NCBI GenBank assembly: GCA_965262745.1
Contig: OZ253558.1
Location: forward strand, 2,015,618 to 2,079,617
Direction: 5' to 3'
Source: Chloroflexota bacterium
GTDB lineage: Bacteria; Chloroflexota; UBA11872
DNA length: 64,000 nucleotides
Position 1 is the first letter of the stretch, and every line of letters starts with the position of its first letter. Positions 2,867 to 58,444 of this stretch are shown in pieces. The notes beneath the pieces were generated by a model. It saw nothing but the letters and a program-made list of their open reading frames with translations. It made no database searches and had not been told where the DNA came from. A program made the translations under genes and the position numbers.

Positions 2867-2961
2867 TGGCCGAAGGAGGTGCCCGACAGTTGCGCGCGTG
2901 GACTAATGCCGCAACCTTAGGTGTATTGCCAGATCTCGGAAACTGGGCCGGCCAGGCAATG

Positions 2962-22699: not shown

Positions 22700-22753
22700 C
22701 GACCGGCCGCCGCCGGCTCTCTAGAATCAACGACACGCGTTAGGAAAGCGCCC

Positions 22754-23971
22754 ATGCGCATTGCCCTGCTGGCCGATACCTATCCCCCCGCGAACCGGGG
22801 CGGGGCGGGGGTGGTGGCGCAGCGCTTGGCGCGCGCCTTTGCCGCGCGCGGCCATGACGTGCTGGTGGTGACCACCTGGCCCGACGCGACCAGTGAGGCG
22901 TCGGACGGTGACGTGCAGGTGCAGCGCTTGCAGTCGCGGTATCCGGAGCGATTCCGCAACACGGTGGCCATGATGAATCCGGTGCTGCTCGGCGGGGTGC
23001 GCCGGGCGCTGGAGGACTTTCGGCCAGACGTGGTGCACGCGCACAACGTGCACCAGCACTTGTCGTTCGCATCGCTCGAAGTGGCGGCGTCCACGGGCGC
23101 TCCGGTGGCTTACACCGCGCACGATTTCCTGCTGTTTTGCTGCATCAAGTTCATCTGCAGCGGCGGACGGGTCGATTTTCGCCAGCGGTGGTTCAACTGC
23201 GCCAAGTGCCAGCGGTTCCGCTGGAACCCGGCGCGCAACGCGGCGATCCGCCGCCAGATGACGACGCACGTGGATCACGTCTTCGTCATCAGCCAGGCGC
23301 TGCAAACCGCGCTGCGGGCCAACGGCTACGGCGGTGCCGAGATCATGCACAACGGCGTTGACGCCGAGTGGTGGTCTCAGGGGGACGGTCCAAGGTTTCG
23401 GGCGAAGATTGGCGTGGACGGCGCGCCGTTGGCGCTGCTGGCCGCCCGGGTGAGCCGCGAGAAGGGGGCCGAAGCCGCGCTGCACGGCATGGCGAAGGCC
23501 CGCAATCCCGAGCTTCGGCTCGTGATCGCCGGCGACAATCCACGCTACGCGCCCAAGCTGCGCGCCCTGGCCCGCGAGCTGGGCGTGGCCGACCGGCTGA
23601 TCTTGCCCGGCTGGATCGACGCCGACACGCTGCGCGATGCCTACCACGCCGCGGACGTCACGCTGGCGCCTTCGACCTATCCGGACCCGTTCAACCTGAC
23701 GCTGATCGAGTCCATGGCCGCCGGCACGCCCGTGATCGCGTCGGCTCTGGGCGCCGGCCCGGAGCTTGTCCCCGACGGCGAGACGGGATTCGCGGTGCAT
23801 CCGGACGACACCATGGGCCTGGCCGACCGCATCTCGCTCATCGTGGAGGACCCGGAATATGGCCGCGCGCTTGGCATGGCTGGCCAGCAGCGCGTGGCGC
23901 GGTATTTCACGCTGGACCGGCAGGTGGACCGGACGCTGGCGCGCTACCAGGCCCTGATCGCCGCCGCATGA
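22754..23971 (+). CDS. GT4-family (GT-B) glycosyltransferase
   Basis: MRIALLADTYPPANRGGAGVVAQRLARAFAARGHDVLVVT N-terminal Rossmann domain and a C-terminal GT1/GT4 EX7E-type region (LIESMAAGTPVIAS). Confidence 0.85.
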   Translation: MRIALLADTYPPANRGGAGVVAQRLARAFAARGHDVLVVTTWPDATSEASDGDVQVQRLQSRYPERFRNTVAMMNPVLLGGVRRALEDFRPDVVHAHNVHQHLSFASLEVAASTGAPVAYTAHDFLLFCCIKFICSGGRVDFRQRWFNCAKCQRFRWNPARNAAIRRQMTTHVDHVFVISQALQTALRANGYGGAEIMHNGVDAEWWSQGDGPRFRAKIGVDGAPLALLAARVSREKGAEAALHGMAKARNPELRLVIAGDNPRYAPKLRALARELGVADRLILPGWIDADTLRDAYHAADVTLAPSTYPDPFNLTLIESMAAGTPVIASALGAGPELVPDGETGFAVHPDDTMGLADRISLIVEDPEYGRALGMAGQQRVARYFTLDRQVDRTLARYQALIAAA

Positions 23972-25167
23972 CGGCCCCGCGCCGAATCGTCCACGTTATC
24001 TCGTCGCTCGCCGTTGGCGGAGCGCAGCGCCATCTGCTGCAGCTGCTCGCGGAGCCCAGGGACAGCGTGCAGCAGGACGTGATCTATTTCCGCGACCACG
24101 ATCTGCGCCGCGACGCCGAGGACCTGGCCGGGCGGGTCCACTACTTGCCCATGGCCGGCGCTTGGGGATGGACGCGGCTGCCCCAACTGACCGCCGCCAT
24201 CATCCGCGGCCGCTACGACGTGGTGCACACGCATCTGCTGCGCGCCGACATGTACGGGGCGCCGGCGGCTCGCGCGGCTCGAGTTCCCGGGCTGGTGGCA
24301 ACCAAGCACAACCTGGAGGCTCGATTGGAGCATCCGGCCTGGCGCTGGCTCCATCGGCGCACCGCCGGGATGCCGGACGCCACCATTGGCATCTCGGACG
24401 CCGTGCGCGCGTGGGCGGTGTCCACCGGCGGCGCACCGGCTTCGAAGACCCGTGTGGTGCTCTACGGGATCGACGCCGCGCCGTTCGCGGACCTGAATCA
24501 ACCGCGCGCCCGTGCCGAGCTTGGCATCGAGCCGCGCGCCCGCGTGGTGCTGTGTCCGGCGCGGCTCGACCCGCAAAAGAACCACGGAATGCTGCTGCGC
24601 GCCTTCGAGCGCGTGCACCAAGAAATGCCGGGCACCGTGCTGCTGCTGGCGGGCGGGCGGCAGCTTGGATCGGCGATCTACGAGCGCGACTTGCGGGCCC
24701 TGGCGGATTTGATCGGCGTTGATGGCGCCGTGCGCTGGGTGGGGGTCCGCAACGACATGAGCCGCCTGCTGGCCGCCTGCGACGTGGTGGCGCTGGCCTC
24801 GGACTGGGAAGGGTTTGGACTGGCGCTCCTTGAAGCCATGGCCGCCGCTCGCCCTGTGGTGGCGACGGCCGTGGGCGGCGTGCCCGAGGTGGTGCGCGAC
24901 GGCGAGAGCGGCATCCTGGTCGAGGCGGGCGACACGTCCGCGTTCGCGGAAGCGCTCGTGCAGGTCTTGCGCAATGACGTCGACCGCAGACGCATGGGCG
25001 CAGCGGCGGCGCGGCGGGCGCGCGACACGTTCACGCTGGACCGCATGAGGGCCGCCACGCACGCCGTGTACGACGAGGTGCTCGGAGCGCGCCCGGCTGG
25101 AGGCACCACCCAGCCGCGCCGATATACTTCCGGGACGGCGCGCGGCAGGCGCGCCCCCTTCACGTAG
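23968..25167 (+). CDS. GT4-family glycosyltransferase
   Basis: ATGA overlap with the upstream stop. Starts RIVHVISSLAVGGAQRHLLQL and has the C-terminal motif LLEAMAAARPVVATAVGGVPEVV. The N-terminal extension in the ORF track (from 23368) is antisense noise. Confidence 0.8.
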   Translation: MTAPRRIVHVISSLAVGGAQRHLLQLLAEPRDSVQQDVIYFRDHDLRRDAEDLAGRVHYLPMAGAWGWTRLPQLTAAIIRGRYDVVHTHLLRADMYGAPAARAARVPGLVATKHNLEARLEHPAWRWLHRRTAGMPDATIGISDAVRAWAVSTGGAPASKTRVVLYGIDAAPFADLNQPRARAELGIEPRARVVLCPARLDPQKNHGMLLRAFERVHQEMPGTVLLLAGGRQLGSAIYERDLRALADLIGVDGAVRWVGVRNDMSRLLAACDVVALASDWEGFGLALLEAMAAARPVVATAVGGVPEVVRDGESGILVEAGDTSAFAEALVQVLRNDVDRRRMGAAAARRARDTFTLDRMRAATHAVYDEVLGARPAGGTTQPRRYTSGTARGRRAPFT

Positions 25168-25176
25168 AGACGCGAG

Positions 25177-26145: not shown

Positions 26146-26180
26146 CGCCACCGAGCCGTCCCATCCGCGTCCTCCAAGTG

Positions 26181-27293: not shown

Positions 27294-27294
27294 C

Positions 27295-28710
27295 GTGCTA
27301 AGTCGAACTCGCGCCGTCGGCAGATTCCTCGCGATCGCCGACGTGCTCTTGACCATGCTCGCGCTGCTTGCGGCCGACACGTTGCGTCACGCGCTGCCGT
27401 TCGGGTTCGGACCCGCCGAGCACCTGGACTGGCTGGGCGCGCGCGAGTACATCATCGTGGCGGCGACGTGGGCCTTCTTCCTCCGCTTCGCCAGGGTTTA
27501 CCACCACCGGCGGGTGATGCGCGTGGTGCTCGAAGCGCGCGCAATCATCTTCGCGGTGCTGCTGGCCACCGGCGCGCTCTTCGCGGCCTTCTTCGTCCTC
27601 AAGGTCGAGTTCCTCTCCCGATTGCTGTTCGTGTATTTCGTCGCGCTCGATCTGACGATCCTGATCAACTTCCGCTGGCTGCTCAACCTGGCGCTGCGCG
27701 CGCGGCACCTCTCGCCCACCAATCGGCGGCTGGTGCTGATCGCCGGGGCCGGTCCCGTGGGGGACCGCGTGTCTCGGCTCATCCTCGACCGCCCGTGGTC
27801 CGGCTACGAGGTGCTGGGATTTGCCGACGACGACGTGTTGAAGCAGGGCACGACGCTCAACGGGCGGCCGGTGCTCGGACTGGTGGCGGAGTTGCCTGCG
27901 CTCGTGGACCGCCATGCGCCCGACGAGGTGATGATCGCGCTGCCCCTGCACGCGCACGGCCTGCTGCGCGAGTCGGTGTTGGCCCTTGAGCGCGCCGACG
28001 TGCGGATTCGAGTGGTGCCCGACGTCGTCGACCTGATGCCCGGTCGCACGATGGCCGAAGACATGTGGGGCATCCCGATGATCAGCGTGCGCGCGCCCGA
28101 GATCACCGGCTTCGATCGGGTGGTCAAACGGGTGTTCGACTTGGTGCTGGGGCTCCTGACCTTGGTGGTGATAGCGCCGGTGATGGCGTTGTCCGCCTTG
28201 GCCGTTTGGCTAGAAAGCGGTCGCCCCGTGATCTTCGCCCAGCGCCGGGTGGGGGAAAACGGCCGGCTCTTCACGATGTACAAGTTCCGCACCATGGTCG
28301 CGAACGCCGAGGCCCAAATCGAAGCGGCCCGGCAGCGCGGCCAGCGGCTCGAAGACCTCTATAAGCCGGCAAACGACGCCCGCGTCACCCGGGTGGGTCG
28401 ACTTCTCCGCCGTGCCAGCCTCGATGAATTGCCCCAACTCTGGAACGTGCTGCGCGGCGATATGAGCTTGGTGGGGCCGCGGCCCGAGTTGCCCTGGGTG
28501 GTGGACCAGTACAAGTCATGGCAGCGCCAGCGGCTCTCGGTGCTCCCGGGAATCACCGGCTGGTGGCAGGTCAACGGCCGCGGGGATCTGCCCTTGGTCG
28601 AAAACGTGGAGTACGACCTGTTCTACATCCAGAACTACTCGCCGCTGTTGGATATCTCGATCCTCGCGCGCACCCTGTGGGTGGTGGCGCGTGGGCGCGG
28701 GGCGTACTAG
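27295..28710 (+). CDS. Polyprenyl-phosphate hexose-1-phosphate transferase (bacterial sugar transferase, WbaP/EpsB-like priming enzyme)
   Basis: N-terminal TM helices, a central CoA-binding-like region, and a C-terminal Bac_transf domain ([57 protein letters not shown]...[11 protein letters not shown]). Confidence 0.85.
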
Positions 28711-29468
28711 GTCAGACGACCGGGAATAGCGCCGCTGGGCCGCTCGGCCATGATGACGCGCACCGGCCACGAGAAGCGACGCACACCGGCGTCCGCGCGA
28801 GCCACGAAGGTCGTGGCTGCCGGTGGTGCTGACAGCCGACACCACAGGTCGTTGGCGAGCCGCGGGGTGCCGCCCGAGCGAGCCACCCACTGATCAACGT
28901 CCAGGGGCGAACGGCAATCCCGCTCAGCGGCGACCGTGAGCCCGGCAACGCGGAGATATCCCGCGAGCTCCGCGGCGGATAGGTTGCGCACGTGCGAAGG
29001 ATCGCGAATCGTCTCGATGTCGTTCATCTCCGCCGCCAGGCAGGGATCGTCGGGGCTTTGCGTGTCGGCGATAACCACGCGCCCGCCAGGGCGCACGACG
29101 CGAGCCATCTCGTGAATGGCGGCGAGTGGGTCGCCGAAGTGGTGCAAGGCATGGCGGCACGTGATGACGTCGTACCTGCCGCCACGAACCGGCACCTGAT
29201 CGGCGGCGGCGCGTAGCGCACGCAGCGGCGCCGGAGCGGTTGCTCGGGCATGGCGCAGCATGGGTCGTGACACGTCGAGAGCATCCACGCACGCGCCACG
29301 CTGCACCAGCGCATGCGCCGTGAAGCCAGTGCCCGTGGCGATGTCCAGCACCGAAGCGCCGGCCGATACGCCGGTCAACTCGATCACCAGCGGCAGGCTC
29401 GGCCCGGATTGGTGGCACGGCGAGACGGCATAGGCGGCCACGCGGTCGTCGAACGCGTGCTGGGTCAC
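28707..29468 (-). CDS. Class-I SAM-dependent methyltransferase
   Basis: VLDIATGTGFTAHAL motif I. GTG start chosen directly after the aminotransferase stop. The M start at 29576 would overlap it by 112 nt. Confidence 0.65.
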   Translation of the reverse strand: MTQHAFDDRVAAYAVSPCHQSGPSLPLVIELTGVSAGASVLDIATGTGFTAHALVQRGACVDALDVSRPMLRHARATAPAPLRALRAAADQVPVRGGRYDVITCRHALHHFGDPLAAIHEMARVVRPGGRVVIADTQSPDDPCLAAEMNDIETIRDPSHVRNLSAAELAGYLRVAGLTVAAERDCRSPLDVDQWVARSGGTPRLANDLWCRLSAPPAATTFVARADAGVRRFSWPVRVIMAERPSGAIPGRLT

Positions 29469-30847
29469 GCGGGCCGGTCGAACGCCTCGAGGGTCTCGGC
29501 GATGGAAGCGTCGAGGATTTCCGCCATCTCGTCGATTTCGCCATCGGTCGAGGTGAGCGGCGGGGCAAAGACCCACACATGGTCGCCGGCGCGGCCGATG
29601 AGGCCGCGAGTGCGCGCTTCGGCGCCGACGGCCCGTCCGAACGGGCGTTCGCTCGGAAAGCTGGCACGGGTGGAACGGTCGGCCACGAATTCAACGCCGA
29701 GGAGCAGGCCGTGCCCGTCAACACGCCCGACGACCTCGTAACGGTCGGCCATGTCTTCCAGGTGCCGGCGCAGGCGCTTGCTCTGACGCCGGCAATTGTC
29801 GAGCACGCCGCCGGTGGTGATCTGCCGCAGGGCGGCGAGTCCCGCGGCGCAGGAAACGGGGTTGCCGGAGTAGGTGTGGCCGGCGTTGAAGTGCACGCCC
29901 GCGTCCCGCTCGCCGAGAAACGCTTGGGCAATCTTGCCGTGAATGATCGCCGCCGCCAGCGGCGCATAGCCGCCGCTGATGCCCTTGCCCACCGTCATGA
30001 TGTCGGGATAGGTGCGGTAGACGTCCGCGCCGAAGAGCTCGCCGAGCCGGCCGAAGCCCGTGATGATCTCGTCGAAGATGAGGACCACGTTATGCCGATC
30101 GCAGATTTCGCGCAGGATCGCGAAATACTCGGGCGGCGGCACGACAAACGCTTCCGCGGACATGATGACGGGCTCGGCGATGAAGGCGGCGACCGTGTCG
30201 GGGCCCTCGTTGCGAATCACGTCATCGACGATCTCCGCGCATAGGACGCCGCAGTCGGGATAGGTGAGCTTGAAGGGGCAGTGGTAGCAGTCGGGCGGAT
30301 GGACCTTCACGAATCCCGCGGGTAGCGGCTCGTACTTGGCCTTGCGCGCCGCCCCGCCGGTTGCCGCCAGGGCCCCAAGGGTCGCCCCGTGGTAGCTGCT
30401 ATAGCGTGAGATGACCTTGAACTTGCCCGGGTTGCCGGTCTGCTTGTGGTACTGCCGAGCCATCTTGATTGCGGTCTCGTTGGCCTCGGAGCCTCCGCTG
30501 ACGAACTTGACCGTCGTGAAATCGGACGGGAAGACATCAATGAGGCGCTCGGCAAGCTCGATCGCGGGCTGGTTGGTCGCGTAGATGGGCAGGGTCAACG
30601 CGACGCGCTCGAGTTGCGCCTGCATGGCCTCGATGATGGGGCGGTTGCCATGGCCGAACTGCATCGCGGCGATGCCGGCAATACCGTCGATGTAGGACCG
30701 GCCCTGCGCGTCGGTGAGCCGCACCCCGGACCCTTCGACGATGACGAGCGGATCCTCCATGAAGGCCTGCATCTGATTGAAGTCGATCATCAGGTTGGCC
30801 AGGCCGGGATGCTGGGGACTGCTTGACCGAGAGTCGGGCTCAGGCAT
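29465..30847 (-). CDS. Class-III (omega) aminotransferase, PLP-dependent
   Basis: Class-III aminotransferase fold with a GSEANE-type segment and a conserved-lysine region TVGKGISGGYAPL. Start set at MPEPDS (30847). The 36-codon upstream extension is R/P-rich. Confidence 0.8.
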   Translation of the reverse strand: MPEPDSRSSSPQHPGLANLMIDFNQMQAFMEDPLVIVEGSGVRLTDAQGRSYIDGIAGIAAMQFGHGNRPIIEAMQAQLERVALTLPIYATNQPAIELAERLIDVFPSDFTTVKFVSGGSEANETAIKMARQYHKQTGNPGKFKVISRYSSYHGATLGALAATGGAARKAKYEPLPAGFVKVHPPDCYHCPFKLTYPDCGVLCAEIVDDVIRNEGPDTVAAFIAEPVIMSAEAFVVPPPEYFAILREICDRHNVVLIFDEIITGFGRLGELFGADVYRTYPDIMTVGKGISGGYAPLAAAIIHGKIAQAFLGERDAGVHFNAGHTYSGNPVSCAAGLAALRQITTGGVLDNCRRQSKRLRRHLEDMADRYEVVGRVDGHGLLLGVEFVADRSTRASFPSERPFGRAVGAEARTRGLIGRAGDHVWVFAPPLTSTDGEIDEMAEILDASIAETLEAFDRPA

Positions 30848-30976
30848 GGGACATATTTCGCTGCAGGTGTAACGCGGGCAGCGTACGCGCCGCCTGAAGG
30901 GTTTGTCGCGCGCCGCCGCCGCGGCAGGACGCCGAGTACGCTTGGCGGCAACCACCGTGAGATAAGCGGAGCCGCC

Positions 30977-32176: not shown

Positions 32177-32226
32177 TCCGCTGATCATGCGCTAGGCTGC
32201 GGCGCCGGATTCCGCGAGCCAGCCCC

Positions 32227-34478: not shown

Positions 34479-34479
34479 G

Positions 34480-39035: not shown

Positions 39036-39036
39036 G

Positions 39037-49142: not shown

Positions 49143-49214
49143 GTTCGCGACGCTAGCACCGACCGCTGAGCGCCACAACCAGACCGGTCCAACGACTCCC
49201 GCCCCCGCGAGGAT

Positions 49215-50303
49215 TTATCCAGCGTGGCCGTTCGTGCGACCGTTCTGCAGCACCGGCAGCGGGTCAGAGGTAGCGACCGACCGCGCACCCGCAAAGGCCC
49301 GCCACAGCGGCGTGTCCTCCTGCCACTTGGCGTCGCATCCGGCGCACAGCGGATAGTCCGCCAGCTGGCCTTGGGTGTGCGCCTCGCGAATGGCCCGATA
49401 GGCGTCGCTGTTCCAGACATCTTGGATTGATTGCGTGCGGAGGTCGCCCATGATCTGGTCTTCGGCGAAGTCGGCACAGCACGACGGCACGCGGCCGTCC
49501 CAATAGACCGCCATGGATTTCCACAGCCAGTTGCAGGGGTAGTAGACCGGACCGTGCGGGCGCGCCGTGTAGAAATCGGAGTCCGTAAGCGTGCCCGCCC
49601 ACCCGTGGGCCCAGAAGGTGTCCCACTCGTCGACGGGCAAGCCGGCAAATCGATCCTTGAAGTCCGCGGGGACCACCGGGCGCGCGCCGACGCCAAACGA
49701 CTTCTCCCAGAGCTGAATCACTTGCATGACGACGTAGGGCTTCGGGCCAGCGAGGCGCTTGCGCGCCTCGAGAAACCGCAAGACGCGCTCAAGCACTCGG
49801 TCGAAGTTGGCGCCCTTGCGCATCTGCTCGTAAGTCTCGGGTTCGCCGGAGTCGAAGCTAATGGTCACTTTGGAGGGCCGCGCCTCCAACAGCTTGGCGA
49901 TGGCGTCGTCACGCCACAGTGTGGCGTTGGTGTTGATGTGCGCCGCGATCCCGGCACGCTCGCATATCTCGATCATCTCGTAGATGCCCTGGTGCATGAG
50001 CGACTCGCCGCGGAAGAACAGATTGATCTCCCGGGTGAAGTGGCGGGCCTCGTCGATGATCTTGTTGAACAGGTCCATCTCCATGAACCCGTTGGTGGCG
50101 TTGGCCCCGACGCTCTGCGGGCACATGGGGCAGCGCAGATTGCAGAAGCTGGTGGGTTCCACATGCATCTTGATCGGCCCGTAGGGCAACTCGCTGCTGC
50201 CACGCATCCAGTGGTAGGCGAAGCGCGCCAAGCGAGGGTGCGCCACCGCCTTGTGCCGACGGAAGTTGAGCACCAGGTCCTTGGCTTGCGTAACCGAGTT
50301 CAC
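49215..50303 (-). CDS. Radical SAM enzyme with C-terminal SPASM/twitch-like Cys-rich domain
   Basis: CNLRCPMCPQ (CxxxCxxC radical-SAM cluster motif). A C-terminal auxiliary-cluster Cys constellation runs from YYPCNWLW through PSCCADF to LCAGCD. 362 aa. Confidence 0.8.
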   Translation of the reverse strand: MNSVTQAKDLVLNFRRHKAVAHPRLARFAYHWMRGSSELPYGPIKMHVEPTSFCNLRCPMCPQSVGANATNGFMEMDLFNKIIDEARHFTREINLFFRGESLMHQGIYEMIEICERAGIAAHINTNATLWRDDAIAKLLEARPSKVTISFDSGEPETYEQMRKGANFDRVLERVLRFLEARKRLAGPKPYVVMQVIQLWEKSFGVGARPVVPADFKDRFAGLPVDEWDTFWAHGWAGTLTDSDFYTARPHGPVYYPCNWLWKSMAVYWDGRVPSCCADFAEDQIMGDLRTQSIQDVWNSDAYRAIREAHTQGQLADYPLCAGCDAKWQEDTPLWRAFAGARSVATSDPLPVLQNGRTNGHAG

Positions 50304-50524
50304 GGAGTGGCCTGGGCCGAATCCTGCGGCGAGATTGCCTCATCCCAGAGCATGTTGGGGATGCCGTCCTCAACCGTGTAGGCGTACCCACAGACGGTGC
50401 AGACGAGCGCAGTCCCGGCGATACGCAAAACCCCATCGTCGCGCTCATGCGCGTCGTTCACGCAGCGCAGAATGGCGAGAAAGTCGGCCGGGATCAGATC
50501 AGAATCTGGGGAATCGGACATCAA
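50300..50524 (-). CDS. Trm112-like (UPF0434/YcaR-like) zinc-ribbon mini-protein with degenerate first CxxC
   Basis: 74-aa ORF. LLAILRCVNDAHE....ALVCTVCGYAYTVEDGIPNMLWDEA matches the Trm112 family consensus (LL.IL.CP.C...L.......L.C..C...Y.I.DGIP.ML.DEA), but the first CPxC is RCVND. Its stop overlaps the radical-SAM start (4-nt overlap). Confidence 0.65.
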   Translation of the reverse strand: MMSDSPDSDLIPADFLAILRCVNDAHERDDGVLRIAGTALVCTVCGYAYTVEDGIPNMLWDEAISPQDSAQATP

Positions 50525-50541
50525 TATGCCTCAGTTCGACG

Positions 50542-52818
50542 CTAGAGCATGAAATGGAGCGTGTCAAAAGTGATCAGGACGGCCCCGTAGACGCCGACGA
50601 TGGACATGCGCCACCAGGCGGCATGACGCCCGGCCGGCCAGAGCCGGTGCGCGACCGCGGCGAGCGCCCCGACGGAGATCACTTGCAGCCCGATGAGGAC
50701 CGCGCCGGTCAACGCCAGGACGACCGGATAGGCCAGGTAGTACTCGATCAACGTCATGGACCAGAAGTCGAGACCCAGGCCGTTTTCGGGGCGTTCCGGA
50801 CGCACCTCGATTCCGAAGCGGGACCACGGCGAGCGCGCTAGGGCGTCCTCTAGCAGGTCTGTCCTATCCGGCGCCAGCAGGTTCGTCGCATCGGCGCGCA
50901 GGAGCCAGGCATGCGCTAGTAGGGGAGAGAACTGGTGCGCATAGAGCACGGCGACGAAGTCGCCCTCCGGCTGGATGGACGACCAGGGCTGGTACGCCGC
51001 TCCGCCGTACACGGCGCCGTCCTCGGGGAGCTGCTGGACCACCTGCTGCTGATAGAGATCGAGATACGAGCCAAAGTCCTTGCTCACGCCCATGACCTGG
51101 ACCCCCACGCTGGCCAGGAGCACGACGGCGAATGCCGCCCGCAGTAATGCGCGGCGGCCTTTCCCGGCCAGCCACTCGACCACCGGCGCGGCCATGATGA
51201 CGAGGAACGGCAGCGCCGGCATGAGATAGCGCGGACCCCAGGCATTGCCGCCGTACCAGACTTCTTTCTTGCTGTAGAGCAGCACGTATCCGATGGGGAT
51301 GGCGATGAAGATGAATGCCCGCCATCCGTGGCGCCGGATGAACCAGGGAATCGCGGGAATGGCCACGAAGAGCACGGGGTTGTACCAGAGCAAGCCCTTG
51401 CCCCAGCTTGAAATCAGCCCATGAACCCCAAGCTCGATCGGAAGGCCCAGCCACCCGCGGCTGATTCCCCCCCACAGCTCCCGGACGTAAAGCAGTTGCA
51501 CGTCAAATACGAGCGCGGCCACCACCAGGCCCGCAGGGACCACGGCGATGATGGGCGCGGCGAAGGCGAGCGTCGGCGCGAGGCCCTGACGCGCTACCAC
51601 GCGCCAGGTGCGTCCGGACTTGTGGCTCAGGAATATCGCCGCCACAAGCAGCGGCATGACGATGACGGTGACGTACTTGGTGGCGGCCGCGGCGAGCGCA
51701 ACCATCCCCGCGAGCACCAGATAGCGGCGCATCGGCGTCCGCTGATAGATCAAGAGCAACCACACGCTCGTGAGCACGAGCGCGGTCACCAGCGGTTCCG
51801 CGAAGTCGAAAACGGCGTAAGGCCAGGCCATGGTGGCGAGTGCGTACACGAGACCGATGGCCAGGGCGATGCCCAAGCCATAGTCCAGCCGCCGAACGAT
51901 GCGATACACGACGACCGTGCCGAAGGCGGTGATCAGCGCGTTGACGAGCGGCACCCAAATGCGGCGGAAGAAGTCGACGGTCTGGCGCTCGGACCACAAC
52001 CGGCCAATACCGGGCCCGTCTACCCAGGTCCCGTCAACGCGCCGAGCCGCGACGCCATCAACGTAAAGATTGCCGTCCGGCACCAGGTATTCCAGCCGCG
52101 CCGACGCAAGGTCGACGGGCTCGGCAAAGTCCCAGTCCGCCAGGAAGTAGTACGCCCGCGCGTTGCCGATCTGACGCCCGGCGGGCGGCGGGCGCTCATG
52201 CTGGATCATGGCCCGGACGTCGCCGCGGTCATAGGCCCACTCCGCCGTCTCCACTCCGACGCGCAGGGGTCGCACGACAGCGTCCCCACCGGCAGCCGTA
52301 ACGACGAGTCGCGCCACCTCGAGACCCTGGGGCAGAGCCGCGCTGAGACCCGTGTGGGTGAGCAGCGCAAGCCGGTCATAGCGTCCCGGCTTCAGCCCTA
52401 GGTCCAGCACCTCGGTGGAGTTGGGCTGTGGCATGCCGCCGAGCGGCGCGTAGTTGACGAGCAGAATCTCATGCTCACCGATTGGGATCCGGTCGCGCTG
52501 CGGCGCGAGATGCGCGGACGATTCGGCAGCAGCAACCACCGGCATCAGCGCCAGGGGCAAGCCCACGCCCCAGCGCGAGAAGTTGTGGCCGTGCCGGCGC
52601 AGGTATTTGTGGTCGGGATCGACGACGACGCTCTTGGCCATCTCGAAGGCGAACGTTCCATCGGCGCTGTAGCCGACGCCATTGCGACTCACGCCGGCCG
52701 TGAGCAGATAGACGGTGACAGCGAGGAGAAACAGCGCGAGCGCCGGACGGCGCACGGCCCACGCCGGCATGCGCAGCCGCATCAGACACGCACCGGATCG
52801 AAGCGCTGTAGCGGCCAC
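50542..52818 (-). CDS. Large polytopic membrane protein, putative GT-C-like glycosyltransferase/polymerase, with ~200-aa extracytoplasmic insert after TM1
   Basis: 758-aa ORF with N-terminal TM (ALALFLLAVTVYLL), a soluble beta-rich segment (aa ~60-260), then ≥10 TM helices. Confidence 0.5.
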   Translation of the reverse strand: MAATALRSGACLMRLRMPAWAVRRPALALFLLAVTVYLLTAGVSRNGVGYSADGTFAFEMAKSVVVDPDHKYLRRHGHNFSRWGVGLPLALMPVVAAAESSAHLAPQRDRIPIGEHEILLVNYAPLGGMPQPNSTEVLDLGLKPGRYDRLALLTHTGLSAALPQGLEVARLVVTAAGGDAVVRPLRVGVETAEWAYDRGDVRAMIQHERPPPAGRQIGNARAYYFLADWDFAEPVDLASARLEYLVPDGNLYVDGVAARRVDGTWVDGPGIGRLWSERQTVDFFRRIWVPLVNALITAFGTVVVYRIVRRLDYGLGIALAIGLVYALATMAWPYAVFDFAEPLVTALVLTSVWLLLIYQRTPMRRYLVLAGMVALAAAATKYVTVIVMPLLVAAIFLSHKSGRTWRVVARQGLAPTLAFAAPIIAVVPAGLVVAALVFDVQLLYVRELWGGISRGWLGLPIELGVHGLISSWGKGLLWYNPVLFVAIPAIPWFIRRHGWRAFIFIAIPIGYVLLYSKKEVWYGGNAWGPRYLMPALPFLVIMAAPVVEWLAGKGRRALLRAAFAVVLLASVGVQVMGVSKDFGSYLDLYQQQVVQQLPEDGAVYGGAAYQPWSSIQPEGDFVAVLYAHQFSPLLAHAWLLRADATNLLAPDRTDLLEDALARSPWSRFGIEVRPERPENGLGLDFWSMTLIEYYLAYPVVLALTGAVLIGLQVISVGALAAVAHRLWPAGRHAAWWRMSIVGVYGAVLITFDTLHFML

Positions 52819-52821
52819 GGT

Positions 52822-54420
52822 CTAGGCGGCGGGTGCAGCGGGAAACCCGAGCTCATCAACGAGTGCATTGAGACGCTGAGCAAAGGCTGCGACGTTGAAC
52901 CGCTGGCTCGCGGCCTGCGCGGCCTGGGACATGCGGTGGCGCAGGTCGGCATCGTGCACGAGCGCCAAGGTGTGGGCGCGCAGCTCACCGGTCGTCGACC
53001 AGCCGAAGCCGTCGACGCCGTGGGTGATGATCTCGGGCAACCCGCCTTGGTCAAGCACCACCGGCACCGCGCCGCTCGCCATGGCCTCGACCACGGTGAT
53101 GCCGAAGTGCTCGAATCTGACCGGATTGCGCGACTCGCGCTCGCCATGGCCGGCGGCGTGCCAATAGATGGGGGCTTCTCCGTATAGCCGTTGGAGCTCA
53201 GCGAAGGGCGCGTCCACGTGGAACTCGATGGGGTGTCCGGCAGCCCGACGCTTCAGGTCGCGGGTGTATTCGACGTCAATCTCGCGTTCGCTCTGCTGGC
53301 CCACCAGATGCAGTGTCCAGCCCTCGAGCCCCTCGCGCTGCATGCGGATGAACTGGTCGATCATCACCCGGTGCTTCTTCTCGTGCGTGCCGCGGAAGAA
53401 CCGGCCCACGCCCAGAATCGACTTGCCACGGCGACCAGGCGCCGCCCACGAGGTGTCGACCGGCGGGAACAGCAACGGACCATCCCGGTCCCAGTAGTAG
53501 CGCATCCAGCGTCGGCTGAACTCGGAGATGGGCGCGATGAGGTCGTAAGCCTCCAAAAAGTCGAGCGAGCCATAGGTTGGCAGGCCCTCCAGCCGGATGC
53601 CCGCTTCGGGAAGAAGACGGCGGAACAAGAGCTCATACATGAGCCGGCGCGGGTTGCGCATGCGTACATCGGTGACGGCCAACCCAACCTCGCGGTTGTC
53701 GGCTTCCCCGAGAGTCTCGGCGGGGTTGTAGACGGGCGACTCGAGCGTGAGTTCGAGCGGGCCGTTCGTCCCGGGCGGTCGACTTACGCGCACGGGCCAG
53801 CGCTCGAATTCCCCGGGACGCGGCTCGAAGATGCGCTCGGCAATCAGGTCGCCATCGAGAAGGCACCGGACGGGCAGCGGCACATCGCTGCGGAAGTTTC
53901 CGGCGATGATCTCGACGACCCCCGACGTGCGCCCCGGCGGAAGCGGAACGCCCACGACAGCGCGATCCGTGGTGTACCTGAACCAGCCCCGGCCCAGCGG
54001 ATGCACGTCGTAGAAGCCATCGAGCCATTCCGGCAAGAGAAACTGCCGAATCAGGATTTCCCCGACCTTGCGGCGCAGACGCGCGCGCCAGCCACGATCG
54101 ATGGGCGACGGGAAGAGCACCAGCATCATGCTGCGGTGAGCCGCCGACGGCTGGGAAGTCATGAACGACGCGTTCACGAAGAGATCGAACTGCGAGGTGA
54201 ACTGGGCGAAGCGGTTCGGCGGCAAGGCCGGGATGACCTCGATCTCGACCTGGGACAGGTCGATGTTGAGAGCGGCTTCCAAATCTTCGCGCGCAATGCC
54301 GCGATGGGTGATGAGGCGCGTGTCGTCGAAGCGTTGGGCCAACACGGCGGCGGCCATGGCCGCGTGGCGCTCGCCGCCGCCGCGCTGGTGCAGCCAGCGG
54401 TTGTAGACGGCAGCCTTCAT
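52822..54420 (-). CDS. GT4/GT1-family glycosyltransferase with N-terminal extension
   Basis: C-terminal FGITVVEAMASGAVPVVLDQGGLPEII and HLVGQQSEREIDVEY motifs. 532 aa. Confidence 0.75.
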   Translation of the reverse strand: MKAAVYNRWLHQRGGGERHAAMAAAVLAQRFDDTRLITHRGIAREDLEAALNIDLSQVEIEVIPALPPNRFAQFTSQFDLFVNASFMTSQPSAAHRSMMLVLFPSPIDRGWRARLRRKVGEILIRQFLLPEWLDGFYDVHPLGRGWFRYTTDRAVVGVPLPPGRTSGVVEIIAGNFRSDVPLPVRCLLDGDLIAERIFEPRPGEFERWPVRVSRPPGTNGPLELTLESPVYNPAETLGEADNREVGLAVTDVRMRNPRRLMYELLFRRLLPEAGIRLEGLPTYGSLDFLEAYDLIAPISEFSRRWMRYYWDRDGPLLFPPVDTSWAAPGRRGKSILGVGRFFRGTHEKKHRVMIDQFIRMQREGLEGWTLHLVGQQSEREIDVEYTRDLKRRAAGHPIEFHVDAPFAELQRLYGEAPIYWHAAGHGERESRNPVRFEHFGITVVEAMASGAVPVVLDQGGLPEIITHGVDGFGWSTTGELRAHTLALVHDADLRHRMSQAAQAASQRFNVAAFAQRLNALVDELGFPAAPAA

Positions 54421-55871
54421 TCGGGCTCGAAGAAGGGCTGCAACTCACGCGCGTCCAAGGGCCCCAGGCGTTGTTCAATGCGTCGCAGCCGCAGCGTGGC
54501 CGGCATGGCCCGCAGCGCAGCGCCAAGCGCCGATGCCCGCGCCCGGGCTCGCGCGAGCGCCCGCGCGTCGCCCACGGCCAGACCGCGGCGCATCTCACGC
54601 CCGCCGTGGATCACCGCGAGTGCCGCGTGGTGGCCGGCAAGTTTCCCGGGCGCGTTCTTGGCCAGCATGCGCAGCTTGCCGAATTCGACGTTGCGGATGA
54701 ACGACGGGGACCACTCGCCGCTGAACGCCGCGTGGGCGTGGCGAACAACCGACGCCGGCTCGTACCAAAAGCGCCAGCCGCGGCGGCGGGCGCGCCAGGC
54801 AAGGTCCGCGTCTTCGTAGTACATGAAGATGCCCGGATCGAGGAAGTCAAGCGATTCGAGCATCGAGCGGCGGAAGAGCGCCGCCCCGCCCTTGACGGCG
54901 AACACTTCGCGCGGCTCGCTAAAGTCCGGGCCATCCCACGCCTGCCAGACGTTGCCGTGGGTCACGAAGGTTCCGCGATCGCGCATGGAGCCGTCGGGGA
55001 GCGGCTTGATGCCCGCATTCTCGATGACGGGCCGGGCGAGCTCGCGGACAGCATCCTCAGGGATATCAAGCTCGTGACGAGTGCGATCCGGCGTGACGGG
55101 CAGTGTCGCGAGTTCCCGTCCACCGACGGTGACGGAGAGCTCGACGTCGTCGCGGCCGGGGCCGGCGGCGACGTCGAGCGCCACCCGGGCCTTGCCGTCG
55201 ACGGCGGGAACGGCCAGCGTGGCCGTGGCGGCGGTCCAGCGAAACATCTCGCCTTGCTGGTCGAGCTCCGCGCCATAGGCGCCGCGGTTGATGACGACCG
55301 GCGCTAGTTCAGCCCCGTCGGCATAGAGCCGGACGGCCGGCGCTGCTTCAGCCCCGACGGCATAGAGCCGCACGCCAAGCTCGCGCGCGTCGCCGCCGCC
55401 GGGCACGAAGGTCGGCGCGCGCAGGTCCACGGCAATACGATCATGCAGATACAGAATCTTTGCTGCGGCGCCCCCGGCCACGGGGTCCGCTTGCATGCGT
55501 TCCACCAGTGGCCGCAGCCATCCGGGATCGACCTCCGTGTCGGGATTGAGAAGCGCGACGAGCGGGGCGGTCGCATCCCGCATGGCCAGGTTGTTGCCAC
55601 GCGAGAAGCCGAGGTTTGCCCCAGCCTCCATGAGCGCGACTTCCGGAAAGTCACGGCCCAGGTTGCGTAGGGATCCATCCGTGGAGGCGTTGTCGACGAC
55701 GATGACTTCAAAGCTTGGATAGTCCGTGGCAAGCACGGCGCTGAGACACCGATCAATGAACGCCCCGGGGTTGTAGGTGAGGACGACGATACAGACGCGC
55801 GGCAGACTGCGAGACCGAGGTGCTCGCCGAGCCGGCGGACGCGGCGCCTCGGCCGCGATGGCGTCTGTCAT
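54417..55871 (-). CDS. GT2-family glycosyltransferase (GT-A fold) with internal tandem duplication and C-terminal extension
   Basis: VCIVVLTYNPGAFIDRCLSAVLATDYPSFEVIVVDNASTDGS plus DxD-type and QxxRW-like regions (PDTEV...YYEDADLAWRARRRGW). Confidence 0.8.
   Translation of the reverse strand: MTDAIAAEAPRPPARRAPRSRSLPRVCIVVLTYNPGAFIDRCLSAVLATDYPSFEVIVVDNASTDGSLRNLGRDFPEVALMEAGANLGFSRGNNLAMRDATAPLVALLNPDTEVDPGWLRPLVERMQADPVAGGAAAKILYLHDRIAVDLRAPTFVPGGGDARELGVRLYAVGAEAAPAVRLYADGAELAPVVINRGAYGAELDQQGEMFRWTAATATLAVPAVDGKARVALDVAAGPGRDDVELSVTVGGRELATLPVTPDRTRHELDIPEDAVRELARPVIENAGIKPLPDGSMRDRGTFVTHGNVWQAWDGPDFSEPREVFAVKGGAALFRRSMLESLDFLDPGIFMYYEDADLAWRARRRGWRFWYEPASVVRHAHAAFSGEWSPSFIRNVEFGKLRMLAKNAPGKLAGHHAALAVIHGGREMRRGLAVGDARALARARARASALGAALRAMPATLRLRRIEQRLGPLDARELQPFFEPE
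55301..55378. repeat. 39-bp x2 in-frame tandem direct repeat inside the GT2 gene (duplicates 13 aa: VRLYAVGAEAAPA / VRLYADGAELAPV)
   Basis: gcgctagttcagccccgtcggcatagagccggacggccg followed by gcgctgcttcagccccgacggcatagagccgcacgccaa, ~85% identical head-to-tail. Confidence 0.7.
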
Positions 55872-57583
55872 TCCACGCTGATCGAGCGCACGGCCAGCCC
55901 GAGGACGCGAGTGTCATCGTCGATGCCCGCGGCCGCGGGGACGAACGGCGCGTCAACGGTGATCTCGAGCTGCAACGTCGTGGGCTCGGTCACCGGATCG
56001 AGCGGCACGATCACGTCCTCGAAATCCATTTGCCGCACGGTAAACGTCGCCACGTGCCGCCCGTTGAGACGAACCTGGGCGCTTGCGCCATCGATGTCGT
56101 GGAACGGGCGGCACACCGACAGCCGCACCGCGCCCTGCCCCACGGATTGGGTGACATAGGCCACGGCGCGATCAGTCGTCCAGCGGAGTCGGGGCGGCCA
56201 CTCCTCCGGGGGATGCCAGCCTTCGCCAAGCCAGTCGTCATCTCCCTCACCAAGGCGGAGCTCGGCGGGCGGGTTACGCCAGATCTGGCGCGGCGGCTCG
56301 CTGATCATATCCGGCTGCGCCACCGGAGCATCGCTGCGCTCGAGCGGCGGATGGTCTCGCGAGAGGCCGGCGCGCCATTGGGCCGGGAGCACGACCGCAC
56401 CCCGCTGGAAGGCCGTGAACTTGCCCACGAAGAGCGTCAGCGCATTGTCCCAACAGTGGTAGGGCTGGTGGCGCTTCTGCTCCGGCCATGCACTGAGGGA
56501 GACGTTGTAGGTACCGACGCCGAGTGGCAGCGGCCCGAGGCGGCAGGTGACGACGGTGCGGCCGGGCGCCACCTCCAGCGGGCCGATGGTGGCTTCCGTG
56601 GTCGACTCGGCGACCAGCAGGCCATCGCTGCGATGCAGGGCGCACCCAACGATCACGTCGGTCAAGTGCGACTTGGCTTCCAGCTCGGCCGCCACGGTGA
56701 CGGTGTCACCCGGAAGCACGCTGTACTGCTCGGGTCCATCGGCACTTTCCCGCAAGACGGCCGCCCGAATTCGCAGGTCGGTGGGGCCACGTGCCGCGCG
56801 CTGCGCGGTTGCCACATCGCCGGGCGTCAAGCCGCCCTGCATGTGCTGGACATAGTCTTGAATGACCTTGCGCGGGTCGCCTGCCAGGCGCACCTTGCCG
56901 CGGTCCAGCCAGACCACACGGTCGCAGAACCGTCGCACCTGAATGGGGTCGTGTGAGACGAGCACCATCGTGCGGCCACGGCGCTTGACGCGAGCCAGGG
57001 CTGCGTAGCACTTGGCCGCGAAGCTCGCATCGCCTACGGCCAGGACCTCGTCAATGAGCAGGATCTCGGGGTCCACGTGGACGGCGATGGCAAACCCCAG
57101 CCGCATGAACATGCCGGATGAGTAGTGCTTGACCGGCGTATCGATAAATTTCTCAAGCTCGGCAAAGGCGACGATGTCGTCGTACATCGCTTGAATCGAG
57201 CGCCGGTCGAGGCCGAGAAACGATCCGTTGAGGAAGACGTTCTCGCGGCCGGTGAGGTCCGGATGCATGCCAGCGCCAAGCTCGAGGAGTCCAAACACGC
57301 GGCCGCGGGCGGTGACCTGGCCTTCGGTAGCCTGGATCGTCCCGGCGAGCAACTTGAGAATGGTGCTCTTGCCCGACCCGTTTGGGCCGATGATGCCGAG
57401 CGTCTCACCGGGCGCGACGGACAGATTCACGCCATCGAGCGCCCAGAACTCCTCGTTTTCCATCGGCCGCCGCCCGAGCATAGCCAGGGCCATCCCTTGA
57501 AACGTGCGGGCCGCTTCGTGGCGAATGACAAACCGCTTGCGCACGTCGCGAAGCTCAATGGCGGGTGGCGAGTGGTCAGGCAC
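55868..57583 (-). CDS. ABC transporter ATP-binding protein, Wzt/TagH-like polysaccharide exporter ATPase with ~300-aa C-terminal (carbohydrate-binding-type) extension
   Basis: Walker A GIIGPNGSGKST, ABC signature LSGGM-like and Walker B ILLIDE. The C-terminal half after the NBD is beta-rich, like Wzt C-terminal domains. Confidence 0.85.
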   Translation of the reverse strand: MPDHSPPAIELRDVRKRFVIRHEAARTFQGMALAMLGRRPMENEEFWALDGVNLSVAPGETLGIIGPNGSGKSTILKLLAGTIQATEGQVTARGRVFGLLELGAGMHPDLTGRENVFLNGSFLGLDRRSIQAMYDDIVAFAELEKFIDTPVKHYSSGMFMRLGFAIAVHVDPEILLIDEVLAVGDASFAAKCYAALARVKRRGRTMVLVSHDPIQVRRFCDRVVWLDRGKVRLAGDPRKVIQDYVQHMQGGLTPGDVATAQRAARGPTDLRIRAAVLRESADGPEQYSVLPGDTVTVAAELEAKSHLTDVIVGCALHRSDGLLVAESTTEATIGPLEVAPGRTVVTCRLGPLPLGVGTYNVSLSAWPEQKRHQPYHCWDNALTLFVGKFTAFQRGAVVLPAQWRAGLSRDHPPLERSDAPVAQPDMISEPPRQIWRNPPAELRLGEGDDDWLGEGWHPPEEWPPRLRWTTDRAVAYVTQSVGQGAVRLSVCRPFHDIDGASAQVRLNGRHVATFTVRQMDFEDVIVPLDPVTEPTTLQLEITVDAPFVPAAAGIDDDTRVLGLAVRSISVE

Positions 57584-57589
57584 GTCGCG

Positions 57590-58444
57590 CTACAGCTCCT
57601 CGGCGAAGCGATGGGCATAGCGCCGAAAGATCCACCAACCGAAGCCGAGCGCGACCACCGCGACGACGATGGTGGCGATGGTGTGGCGGATGGGGAAGGA
57701 CCCAAACATGATTGCGTAGCGGTAGTCGGTTGTCAGCGTGGCCATGGGATTGAGCATGAAGACCCAGCGGTGCACATCCAGCCCGAGGAAGGTCACGTTT
57801 GGCACGACCGAAATAGAATAGAACACGGGTGTGAGGAAAAACCAGGCCAGCATGCCAACCTCCACCAAATGCTCCGTATCGCGGAAAAAAACATTGGCCA
57901 TCGCGAGGATGAGACTGAGACCCATCACTAACGTAAGCTGCAATAGCATAATCAGCGGTACCATCAGCATCGCGCGAGTATTACCGACACCAAAAATGAG
58001 ACCGATTACCCAGAATATAAAAAATGCCAGCAGAAAGTTTACAAAGCTCGCCAGCACTGCGCTCATCGGTAGCAATTCACGAGGAAAGTAAACCTTCTTG
58101 ATAAGTTGCGCGTTACTCGTGATGCTCCGCATCGCCGTGGTGAGCGCCTGCTGGGTGAACAACCATGGAACGAGCGCCGCCATGAGAAACAAGGGATACA
58201 GTTGGATATCGTCGTATTGCGCCAAGACCTGAAACACGAGCGTGAACACTGCCATCATGAGCAACGGATTGAGCAGCGACCACGCGAAGCCAAAAATGGA
58301 CCCGCGATAGCGCACCTTGAGGTCGCGAACCACCAGGTTGCGCAACAGGTCGGTGTAGTCCGCGATCTCGCGGACGGCGCCCCACACGCGGCGCAGCATC
58401 AATGGCGAAACCGAGGCGGCGGCACGTGCCATGCGGTGCTCCAT
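57590..58444 (-). CDS. ABC-2 type transporter permease, Wzm/TagG-like
   Basis: 284-aa ORF with 6 TM helices and an N-terminal VVRDLKVRYRGSIFGFAWSLLNPLLMM ABC-2 signature. Confidence 0.8.
   Translation of the reverse strand: MEHRMARAAASVSPLMLRRVWGAVREIADYTDLLRNLVVRDLKVRYRGSIFGFAWSLLNPLLMMAVFTLVFQVLAQYDDIQLYPLFLMAALVPWLFTQQALTTAMRSITSNAQLIKKVYFPRELLPMSAVLASFVNFLLAFFIFWVIGLIFGVGNTRAMLMVPLIMLLQLTLVMGLSLILAMANVFFRDTEHLVEVGMLAWFFLTPVFYSISVVPNVTFLGLDVHRWVFMLNPMATLTTDYRYAIMFGSFPIRHTIATIVVAVVALGFGWWIFRRYAHRFAEEL

Follow-up and report, generated by a model that had tools for sequence, protein, structure and literature searches.

Does a locus that encodes both a Wzx-type flippase and a Wzm/Wzt ATP-binding cassette (ABC) exporter make one surface glycan, two, or a hybrid of both? 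The question is raised by a stretch of 64,000 nucleotides (nt) from an uncultured Chloroflexota bacterium (contig OZ253558.1, positions 2,015,618 to 2,079,617), referred to here as the window, in which an original prediction recognised a ~36 kb glycan megacluster with both kinds of export machinery. Comparison with ~40 related Chloroflexota loci indicates that two cassettes, each able to occur by itself, were fused in this lineage, and that an inverted third piece belonging to the Wzx cassette has to be added. With moderate confidence, we read the whole as a composite of two self-contained lipid-carrier glycan pathways that are co-expressed and whose products are possibly joined.

The window has a G+C content of ~68%, which makes raw lists of open reading frames (ORFs) noisy. 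Genes were therefore called from frame bias in third-position G+C (GC3) and then confirmed by Pfam and NCBIfam matches. For the comparison, window proteins were placed on the fetched loci by local tblastn, and the gene calls around homologues were inspected for order and neighbours. One contig (L001) is near-identical to the window. The relatives found are mostly uncultured metagenome-assembled genomes, and homologues of the 593-residue protein B4 described below, like the related loci, come nearly all from assemblies of this type assigned to Chloroflexota. Several isolate names among the relatives (COS3_bin, RHO3_bin) may point to marine sponge symbionts. Chloroflexota are usually regarded as single-membraned, and the host assignment is consistent with the earlier guess of a monoderm.

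Nineteen minus-strand genes, rather than the ~22 first counted, run unbroken from position 58444 down to 33372 with a coding fraction of ~100%, which leaves no space for terminators. They fall into cassette A (49215-58444), which carries the ABC exporter, and cassette B (33372-49142), which carries the flippase:

A1, 57590-58444, minus strand: Wzm, an ABC-2 permease and the first gene of the chain (Pfam ABC2_membrane, 46.2 bits against a cutoff of 26.9).
A2, 55868-57583, minus strand: Wzt, an ATPase with a C-terminal carbohydrate-binding domain (Pfam ABC_tran and Wzt_C).
A3, 54417-55871, minus strand: GT2 glycosyltransferase of 484 amino acids (aa) (Pfam Glycos_transf_2, E 8.5e-22), with an ATGA overlap with wzt.
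A4, 52822-54420, minus strand: GT4-like glycosyltransferase of 532 aa (Glycos_transf_1, residues 343-502 only).
A5, 50542-52818, minus strand: GT-C membrane glycosyltransferase, PMT/ArnT-like, 746-758 aa, with ~13 predicted transmembrane (TM) segments.
A6, 50300-50521, minus strand: Trm112-like zinc-ribbon protein of 73 aa (NCBIfam Trm112_arch, E 2e-7; weak Pfam Trm112p).
A7, 49215-50303, minus strand: radical S-adenosylmethionine (SAM)/SPASM enzyme (Pfam Radical_SAM and SPASM), with a GTGA overlap with A6.
B1, 47970-49142, minus strand: GT4 glycosyltransferase, the first gene of cassette B (Pfam; 390 aa in L001).
B2, 46843-47973, minus strand: GT4 glycosyltransferase (Pfam), ATGA overlap.
B3, 45701-46846, minus strand: GT4 glycosyltransferase (Pfam), GTGA overlap.
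B4, 43927-45708, minus strand: cytoplasmic protein of 593 aa with a uronate-lyase/dermatan-sulfate-epimerase fold (AlphaFold2 model and Foldseek).
B5, 42719-43930, minus strand: GT4 glycosyltransferase (Pfam).
B6, 40164-42776, minus strand: YfhO-family GT-C membrane glycosyltransferase of 870 aa (Pfam YfhO, 48.3 bits against 28.5).
B7, 39037-40167, minus strand: GT4 glycosyltransferase (Pfam), GTGA overlap.
B8, 37536-39035, minus strand: Wzx-type flippase of the multidrug/oligosaccharidyl-lipid/polysaccharide (MOP) superfamily (Polysacc_synt_3, E 7.5e-49), ~11 predicted TM segments.
B9, 36379-37536, minus strand: GT4 glycosyltransferase, missing from the more distant cassette B loci (Pfam, synteny).
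B10, 35327-36394, minus strand: Glyco_trans_1_2-only (CgeB-like) glycosyltransferase (Pfam, E 2.9e-34).
B11, 34480-35325, minus strand: SAM-dependent methyltransferase (Pfam Methyltransf_11 and Methyltransf_23).
B12, 33372-34478, minus strand: GT4 glycosyltransferase, the last gene of the chain (Pfam).

The chain is packed as the original prediction described. All eight start/stop overlaps that it quoted are literally present, as ATGA (55868-55871, 54417-54420, 47970-47973), GTGA (50300-50303, 46843-46846, 40164-40167), TTGA (43927-43930) or TGATG (37534-37538), and an additional overlap of 8 nt lies at the B4/B3 junction (45701-45708). If each gene is started as close as possible to the stop codon upstream of it, overlaps occur at 11 of the 18 junctions, and eight of these are of the 4-nt [ATG]TGA type. 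Chance does not account for this packing, since relatives at 54-66% protein identity repeat both the order of the genes and the 4-nt overlaps. The further statement that no gap exceeds 36 nt holds if B1 starts at TTG 49178, but fails with the likelier ATG at 49142, which leaves 72 nt and is favoured by the typical GT4 N-terminus MRLTLVSNIFPP and by the 390-aa product called on L001. With either start, this gap is the largest in the chain, and it falls exactly at the seam between cassettes A and B (49143-49214).

Consensus scans of the chain found terminator- and promoter-like sites to be no commoner than in shuffled sequence, with none of them intergenic, although such scans are weak evidence in a non-model phylum. 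Since no excess of such sites splits the chain, one long transcript across it is still plausible. An apparent gap of 750 nt upstream of wzm is mostly taken up by a plus-strand gene (58555-59190) for a protein of the metallo-beta-lactamase (MBL) fold, and a divergent region of ~110 nt is left. This gene (Lactamase_B_3) diverges from wzm, an arrangement that is kept with cassette A in L006 and L049, and the glycan operon and this gene may be controlled from a common region.

Tight coupling does not make the chain one ancestral unit, since each of the two cassettes is found without the other in relatives. L006 and L049 have cassette A by itself, in the order wzm, wzt, GT2, GT4-like, an additional methyltransferase gene, GT-C, Trm112-like and radical SAM, after which unrelated genes follow. 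Its neighbours in L049 are purA, pyrG and the MBL-fold gene, just as they are in the window, which makes this the orthologous chromosomal position. In L004 and L005 it is cassette A that is missing, and cassette B has cell-division genes upstream instead (FtsEX, a PcsB-like peptidase and an S41 peptidase); the distant cassette B of L004 also includes two unannotated membrane proteins of 7-8 TM segments that are not present in the window. The two cassettes are adjacent only in the wider clade of the window (L001, L002 and L003).

The third piece, unit C, lies on the opposite strand, beyond a block of four other genes (block D):

C1, 22754-23971, plus strand: GT4 glycosyltransferase (Pfam).
C2, 23968-25167, plus strand: GT4 glycosyltransferase (Pfam), ATGA overlap with C1.
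C3, 25177-26145, plus strand: NAD-dependent sugar-nucleotide epimerase/dehydratase (Pfam Epimerase).
C4, 26112-27293, plus strand: GT4 glycosyltransferase (Pfam).
C5, 27295-28710, plus strand: polytopic phosphoglycosyltransferase of the WbaP/WcaJ class (Bac_transf and CoA_binding_3; TIGR03025, 423 bits against 295.6).

In L018 (~60% identity), and in L019-L022 and L039 (45-50%), C1-C5 lie directly behind B12 on the same strand. C5 therefore belongs with the Wzx cassette, and is predicted to be the priming enzyme of its pathway. For C3, the best NCBIfam matches are GalE, TviC and dTDP-glucose dehydratase models, all below cutoff. Close relatives (L009 and L011-L017, 78-94% identity) have the block from C1 to D4, the last gene of block D, inverted exactly as in the window, and L010 has the window order as far as its contig reaches. 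One inversion would explain the arrangement of C and D. One of its breakpoints coincides with a 4-nt overlap (33372-33375) between the stop codon of B12 and that of the convergent dehydratase gene D4, and a search around both breakpoints (near 22.7 kb and 33.4 kb) gave no convincing inverted repeats.

Which enzymes, then, do the two arms contain? Both the Wzm/Wzt exporter and the Wzx-type flippase are confirmed by Pfam, NCBIfam and PDB matches. The predicted total of at least 16 glycosyltransferases is reached only if the 13 Leloir-type enzymes are counted together with the phosphoglycosyltransferase and both GT-C proteins, namely YfhO and the PMT/ArnT-like protein. The Leloir-type set comprises 11 Glycos_transf_1/GT4 proteins, one Glyco_trans_1_2-only protein and one GT2, and eight GT-B glycosyltransferases in all are in cassette B. 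The two GT-C enzymes point to transfer steps outside the membrane, in agreement with the extracytoplasmic glycosylation that had been proposed.

In cassette A, wzm and wzt are adjacent, 6 nt apart. Wzm has ~6 predicted TM segments and weak similarity to a galactan Wzm/RfbD model. Wzt matches ABC_tran with 76.9 bits against a cutoff of 25 and Wzt_C with 46 bits against 30.4, and has ~170 further C-terminal residues beyond the binding domain. Its residues 35-402 align with the PDB chains 8dku/7k2t (404 aa, full-length, deposited as 'ABC transporter'; E 7e-71), which we take to be the O-antigen Wzt of Aquifex aeolicus including its carbohydrate-binding domain. TagH models are also matched, at E values of 1e-54 to 1e-57, but with scores of 195 against a cutoff of 538 and 184.5 against 320. 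Because Wzt_C is above its cutoff, the PDB chains align and the TagH scores are far below theirs, Wzt is predicted to belong to an exporter of the O-polysaccharide type rather than to be a TagH.

The glycosyltransferases behind the exporter are of three kinds. A3, the sole GT2, has no predicted TM segment and no GtrB-type match. The gene for A4, in which the N-terminal ~330 aa lie outside the Glycos_transf_1 match, directly follows the GT2 gene in L002, L003, L006, L007 and L049. A5 orthologues have PF13231 (PMT_2) and PF02366 (PMT) domains, and their source annotations read GT39 or 'phospholipid carrier-dependent glycosyltransferase'; a PDB sequence search with A5 gave no usable match. Its AlphaFold2 model (mean predicted local distance difference test score, pLDDT, 89) resembles STT3, PglB, Pmt4, ArnT, AftB and Emb in Foldseek, all weakly (E ~1e-4, TM-score ~0.27). 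Within the first external loop, residues 98-255 of the same model fold as a beta-sandwich for which Foldseek finds similarity to the carbohydrate-binding modules (CBMs) CBM16 and CBM32. Asp41, which is invariant among orthologues, lies after the first TM helix and beside this CBM-like insert.

Cassette A ends with the A6/A7 pair in every relative seen, and in L006 and L049 it is here that the stand-alone cassette stops. The small ORF A6 was considered as the ribosomally synthesised and post-translationally modified peptide (RiPP) precursor of the radical SAM/SPASM gene and was ruled out as such, being a Trm112-like zinc ribbon instead; its orthologues in L006, L007 and L049 match PF03966 (Trm112p). 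A7 fits no named NCBIfam family (best score 104 bits against a cutoff of 380). A gene 39% identical to A7 is found in L008, within a cluster like those for lipopolysaccharide (LPS) core (heptosyltransferases, a 3-deoxy-D-manno-octulosonic acid (Kdo) kinase and an EptA-like protein), and a Trm112p gene lies 6 kb from it. The location of this homologue in an LPS-core-like cluster suggests a type of radical enzyme that may be dedicated to glycans. An apparent fusion of a radical SAM enzyme with a GT4 (P0173, L048 10001-12513) was set aside as a likely frameshift artefact, with the GT4 split over two ORFs, a low-complexity linker and an error-prone assembly.

Cassette B has at its core the Wzx-type protein B8, for which the original prediction had left room for a MurJ-like identity. 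In addition to Polysacc_synt_3 it matches Polysacc_synt (E 3.9e-10), its best NCBIfam models are a WzxC-like MOP flippase, an O-glycosylation flippase (E 2e-29, below cutoff) and TuaB, and no match to the MurJ/MVIN family was obtained at E values up to 0.01. The flippase identity was thus upheld, and a Wzx role is further backed by the conserved synteny with glycosyltransferases and a priming transferase. The YfhO-family protein B6, with at least nine predicted TM segments, is kept in every cassette B locus, and a PDB sequence search with it gave no usable match.

The remaining distinctive member of cassette B is B4, which has no Pfam match, no predicted TM segment and no signal peptide. Its AlphaFold2 model (mean pLDDT 93.5) is an alpha-helical toroid with a beta-sandwich, and the best Foldseek matches (E ~1e-9) are human dermatan sulfate epimerase 1 and uronic-acid lyases of families PL8/12/15/17/33, including 6hzn and 2x03. 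Consideration of this ORF as a GT-C or Wzy was abandoned, the protein being soluble with a lyase-type fold. B4 is kept in cassette B loci down to 34-36% identity and is nearly restricted to Chloroflexota. The predicted fold hints that the glycan of the Wzx arm may contain uronic acids, with their epimerisation or cleavage taking place in the cytoplasm. A near-invariant cluster of Cys35, His38, His42 and Cys112 in B4 might bind metal.

Several functions expected of better-known pathways do not appear among the Pfam and NCBIfam matches in the cluster. No Wzy, Wzz, LytR-CpsA-Psr (LCP) or Tag-type genes are found there, nor any Pfam match to Wzy_C or Wzz domains, and by TM prediction the only polytopic membrane proteins of the cluster are Wzm, A5, YfhO, Wzx and C5. 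TagF/TagB/TagD-type genes and genes for glycerol- or ribitol-phosphate are likewise absent from the cluster. There is no match above cutoff to the Rml proteins (rmlABCD), and no recognisable rhamnosyltransferase. By its gene content, the locus lacks what defines teichoic acid machinery, rhamnan loci, classical Wzx/Wzy systems and the CsbB-GtcA-YfhO system.

Is the presence of both export routes then anomalous? The original prediction held Wzx-dependent and ABC-dependent loci to be alternatives as a rule, but wall-polysaccharide loci of Gram-positive cocci combine an ABC exporter, a Wzx and a GT-C in one locus (PMC9574508, PMC8035078), and the joining of two chains has a precedent in the rhamnose-rich wall polysaccharides of lactococci and streptococci (PMC9574508). 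Those for rhamnose-rich polysaccharides in Lactococcus, Streptococcus and Enterococcus (cwps, GAC/gac, rgp and epa), in which assembly is dual-chain or four-component, resemble the window in having an ABC exporter for a backbone made in the cytoplasm, a Wzx-family flippase for a lipid-linked sugar or oligosaccharide to which several cytoplasmic glycosyltransferases contribute, and polytopic GT-C enzymes that act outside. They differ from it in the rml genes and recognisable rhamnosyltransferases that the window lacks, and in priming, which in the window is of the WbaP/WcaJ class with a diphosphate link, whereas GacI/GacJ or WpsA/WpsB provide a monophosphate link. The Wzx arm of the window has ~11 glycosyltransferases against ~4-5, and its GT-C is of the YfhO family, with no WpsI/WpsH-type polymerase pair and no LCP ligase. 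The window adds the radical SAM/Trm112-like pair and the cytoplasmic lyase/epimerase-fold protein, belongs to another phylum, and consists of arms that are demonstrably separable cassettes. An ABC exporter and a Wzx in one locus are thus not anomalous; they represent a known hybrid type, found here in a different phylum and with uncharacterised accessory enzymes.

Single arms of the locus have their own counterparts. The Wzm/Wzt systems of Escherichia coli O9a and A. aeolicus share with cassette A an ABC-2 permease, a Wzt_C ATPase and glycosyltransferase genes directly downstream; the window differs from them in the ~170 extra residues of Wzt, in having no capping methyltransferase or kinase, although relatives have the methyltransferase, and in a GT-C and a radical SAM enzyme within the cassette, and its host presumably has a single membrane and lacks WaaL and Lpt. 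Gram-negative ABC-dependent O antigens can carry a three-component decoration that adds single pentofuranose residues from polyprenyl-phosphate donors (PMC11127046). These systems, too, combine an ABC-exported glycan with a GT-C from the same locus, whereas in the window the exporter is accompanied by a full Wzx/phosphoglycosyltransferase pathway and many glycosyltransferases. For the Wzx arm, the CsbB-GtcA-YfhO systems that act on teichoic acids in Bacillus, Listeria and Staphylococcus share the YfhO-family GT-C and presumably a lipid-linked donor outside the membrane. The YfhO proteins that have been characterised add one sugar at a time, taken from a C55-P-sugar that a CsbB-type GT2 has made (PMC8035078). 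In contrast, the window has no CsbB/GtrB-type GT2, GtrA-family flippase or teichoic acid genes, and its YfhO lies among GT4 genes beside Wzx, a setting which suggests that its donor may be an oligosaccharide rather than a monosaccharide.

How could such a composite work? In cassette A, the GT2 and GT4-like enzymes would build a polymer on a polyprenyl carrier at the cytoplasmic side. In O9a-type systems the Wzt binding domain reads the chain end; the corresponding domain here would recognise the end of the A polymer, and Wzm/Wzt would export the chain. A5, with its CBM-like insert, would act on or with the exported chain outside the membrane, while A6 and A7 would supply a modification. In the other arm, C5 would prime the carrier, up to 11 GT-B enzymes from B and C would assemble a large oligosaccharide, and the epimerase C3, the methyltransferase B11 and the lyase/epimerase-fold protein B4 would tailor it. 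Wzx would then flip the finished oligosaccharide across the membrane, and the YfhO-family GT-C would transfer it to an acceptor. YfhO is most likely the terminal transferase of this arm, because Wzy, Wzz, WaaL and LCP proteins are absent and the other polytopic proteins are accounted for. The modularity, the inversion, the gene identities and the overlaps are observed; the substrates of both arms, their co-transcription and the terminal role of YfhO are inferred. The least certain element is the acceptor of the B/C glycan, which, by analogy with dual-chain wall polysaccharides, could be the A polymer. As to origin, the joining of B downstream of A would have produced the translationally coupled 25-kb chain, and C would have been inverted away from B.

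Several points weigh against this composite pathway. Cassette A of the window has no capping methyltransferase or kinase, and only 3 nt separate A4 from A5, whereas in L006, L007 and L049 a methyltransferase gene (410-418 aa) is placed between their counterparts. The only methyltransferase of the chain is B11, in cassette B, so that cassette A itself offers no enzyme for the chain-end cap that the Wzt binding domain would recognise. No WecA/TagO-type initiator (PF00953-type match) was found among the scanned ORFs of the window, although such a gene could lie elsewhere in the genome. The cluster likewise has no CsbB/GtrB-type membrane-anchored GT2, no GtrA flippase and no small GacJ-like membrane protein. 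We know of no precedent for en-bloc oligosaccharide transfer by a YfhO protein, and Wzy proteins are divergent and could be encoded elsewhere in the genome. Co-transcription would have to cross the 36- or 72-nt seam (49143-49214), which measures 167 nt in L002 and is occupied by an opposite-strand amidohydrolase gene in L003. Finally, A and B are apart in relatives, and their products need not be joined.

The strongest alternative builds on this separation. Cassettes A and B/C would make two independent glycoconjugates from adjacent, perhaps co-transcribed genes, with no covalent joining, and we regard this as a serious but less probable explanation than the composite. Each cassette has its own exporter and its own GT-C, they are found separately in relatives, and the seam between them is the largest gap of the chain and the place of the opposite-strand gene in L003. 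Set against this, the fusion as an overlapping chain is kept down to ~54-60% identity, which suggests selection for co-expression, and no ligase that would attach a glycan to peptidoglycan or lipid can be recognised in either cassette.

The composite can also be stated in its most far-reaching form, in which YfhO would replace Wzy, WaaL and LCP by en-bloc transfer or polymerisation of a ~12-sugar unit, primed by C5 and flipped by Wzx, onto the capped Wzm/Wzt polymer. The A polymer would be handled by the CBM-bearing PMT-like GT-C and modified by the radical SAM/Trm112-like pair, the dermatan-sulfate-epimerase-like enzyme would tailor uronic acids, and the whole would be a phylum-specific route by which the main wall glycopolymer of a poorly understood envelope is made. 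Taken together, these steps are unlikely all to be correct.

Protein glycosylation is a further possibility, and to us a doubtful one. Either YfhO or the PMT/STT3-like GT-C would transfer the oligosaccharide flipped by Wzx, or the chain exported by Wzm/Wzt, to a surface or S-layer protein instead of a wall polymer. The score of the flippase against the NCBIfam 'O-glycosylation flippase' (E 2e-29, though below cutoff) fits such a role, as does the lack of Wzy, which is also a feature of en-bloc protein glycosylation, and the best folds for A5 are the oligosaccharyltransferases STT3 and PglB together with Pmt4, its orthologues being named GT39. However, these fold matches are weak and generic for GT-C enzymes, the CBM-like insert of A5 suggests a glycan acceptor, and the locus contains no candidate acceptor protein.

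The original prediction itself leaned towards a teichoic-acid-like polymer, pointing to two LtaS paralogs nearby. These paralogs (194-2449 and 7781-10081, both on the minus strand) are membrane proteins of 751 and 766 aa that are 60% identical to each other. The best Sulfatase match, that of 7781-10081, reaches 21.7 bits against a cutoff of 25, and their identity as LtaS was not confirmed; 194-2449 has no Pfam match, and 7781-10081 has no NCBIfam or PDB sequence match. The C-terminal domain is faintly like the sulfatase/alkaline-phosphatase superfamily, and the genes lie in stretches of lower G+C (~57%). A tRNA-Thr (2961-3037) and a tRNA-Leu (7375-7460) are found near them, and unannotated polytopic proteins between or beside them (3066-5861, 5833-7248 and 11951-13291). 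A wall teichoic or lipoteichoic-type polymer that leaves the cell through a TagGH-like transporter and is decorated there, the two paralogs taking part, could draw on the resemblance of the Wzt ATPase domain to TagH models, on the weakly sulfatase/LtaS-like C-terminal domain of the paralogs and on the glycosylation of teichoic acids by YfhO enzymes in Firmicutes (PMC8035078), but with TagH scores far under their cutoffs, a Wzt_C domain of the O-polysaccharide type, no Tag or polyol-phosphate genes (TagF/TagB/TagD-type enzymes included), and a sub-threshold 'LtaS' match in paralogs that lie 13-22 kb from the cluster with unrelated genes between, this highly improbable reading is largely refuted by gene content.

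Between unit C and the chain lie genes that interrupt the supposed megacluster:

Block D, 28707-33375: four genes, for a methyltransferase, a class III aminotransferase, a stand-alone LanC-like protein and a galactonate dehydratase (Pfam, NCBIfam).

The ~36 kb cluster is real and tightly packed, but it is not continuous, these genes being of non-glycan type. Block D was ruled out as part of the glycan pathway, with the dehydratase D4 scoring 328.7 bits against a cutoff of 311 and the block not lying beside C5 in relatives at 45-50% identity; its genes are metabolic passengers. The methyltransferase and aminotransferase have weak, sub-threshold matches to daptide-type RiPP tailoring enzymes and stand back-to-back with the LanC-like gene, and 28707-32176 may represent a small unit for peptide modification that has nothing to do with the glycan genes. 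At the other end of unit C, a small plus-strand ORF (22245-22700) takes up most of the apparent gap from a penicillin amidase gene to C1, with ~54 nt left upstream of C1. An Rfam scan returned one tRNA only and nothing relevant to the glycan locus.

Chloroflexota envelopes are poorly characterised. The locus does not overturn current pathway models, but the comparison shows how large megaclusters arise by the joining of separable cassettes, and it has yielded clean module boundaries that are usable for heterologous expression. Several components are of biochemical interest, among them the radical SAM/Trm112-like pair, the cytoplasmic lyase/epimerase-fold protein and a YfhO without its usual partners. 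The locus is conserved over 30 kb and provides two routes of export together with two GT-C enzymes, which makes it a good candidate for the source of the main surface glycopolymer of these bacteria, and if it is, it could determine host or phage recognition.

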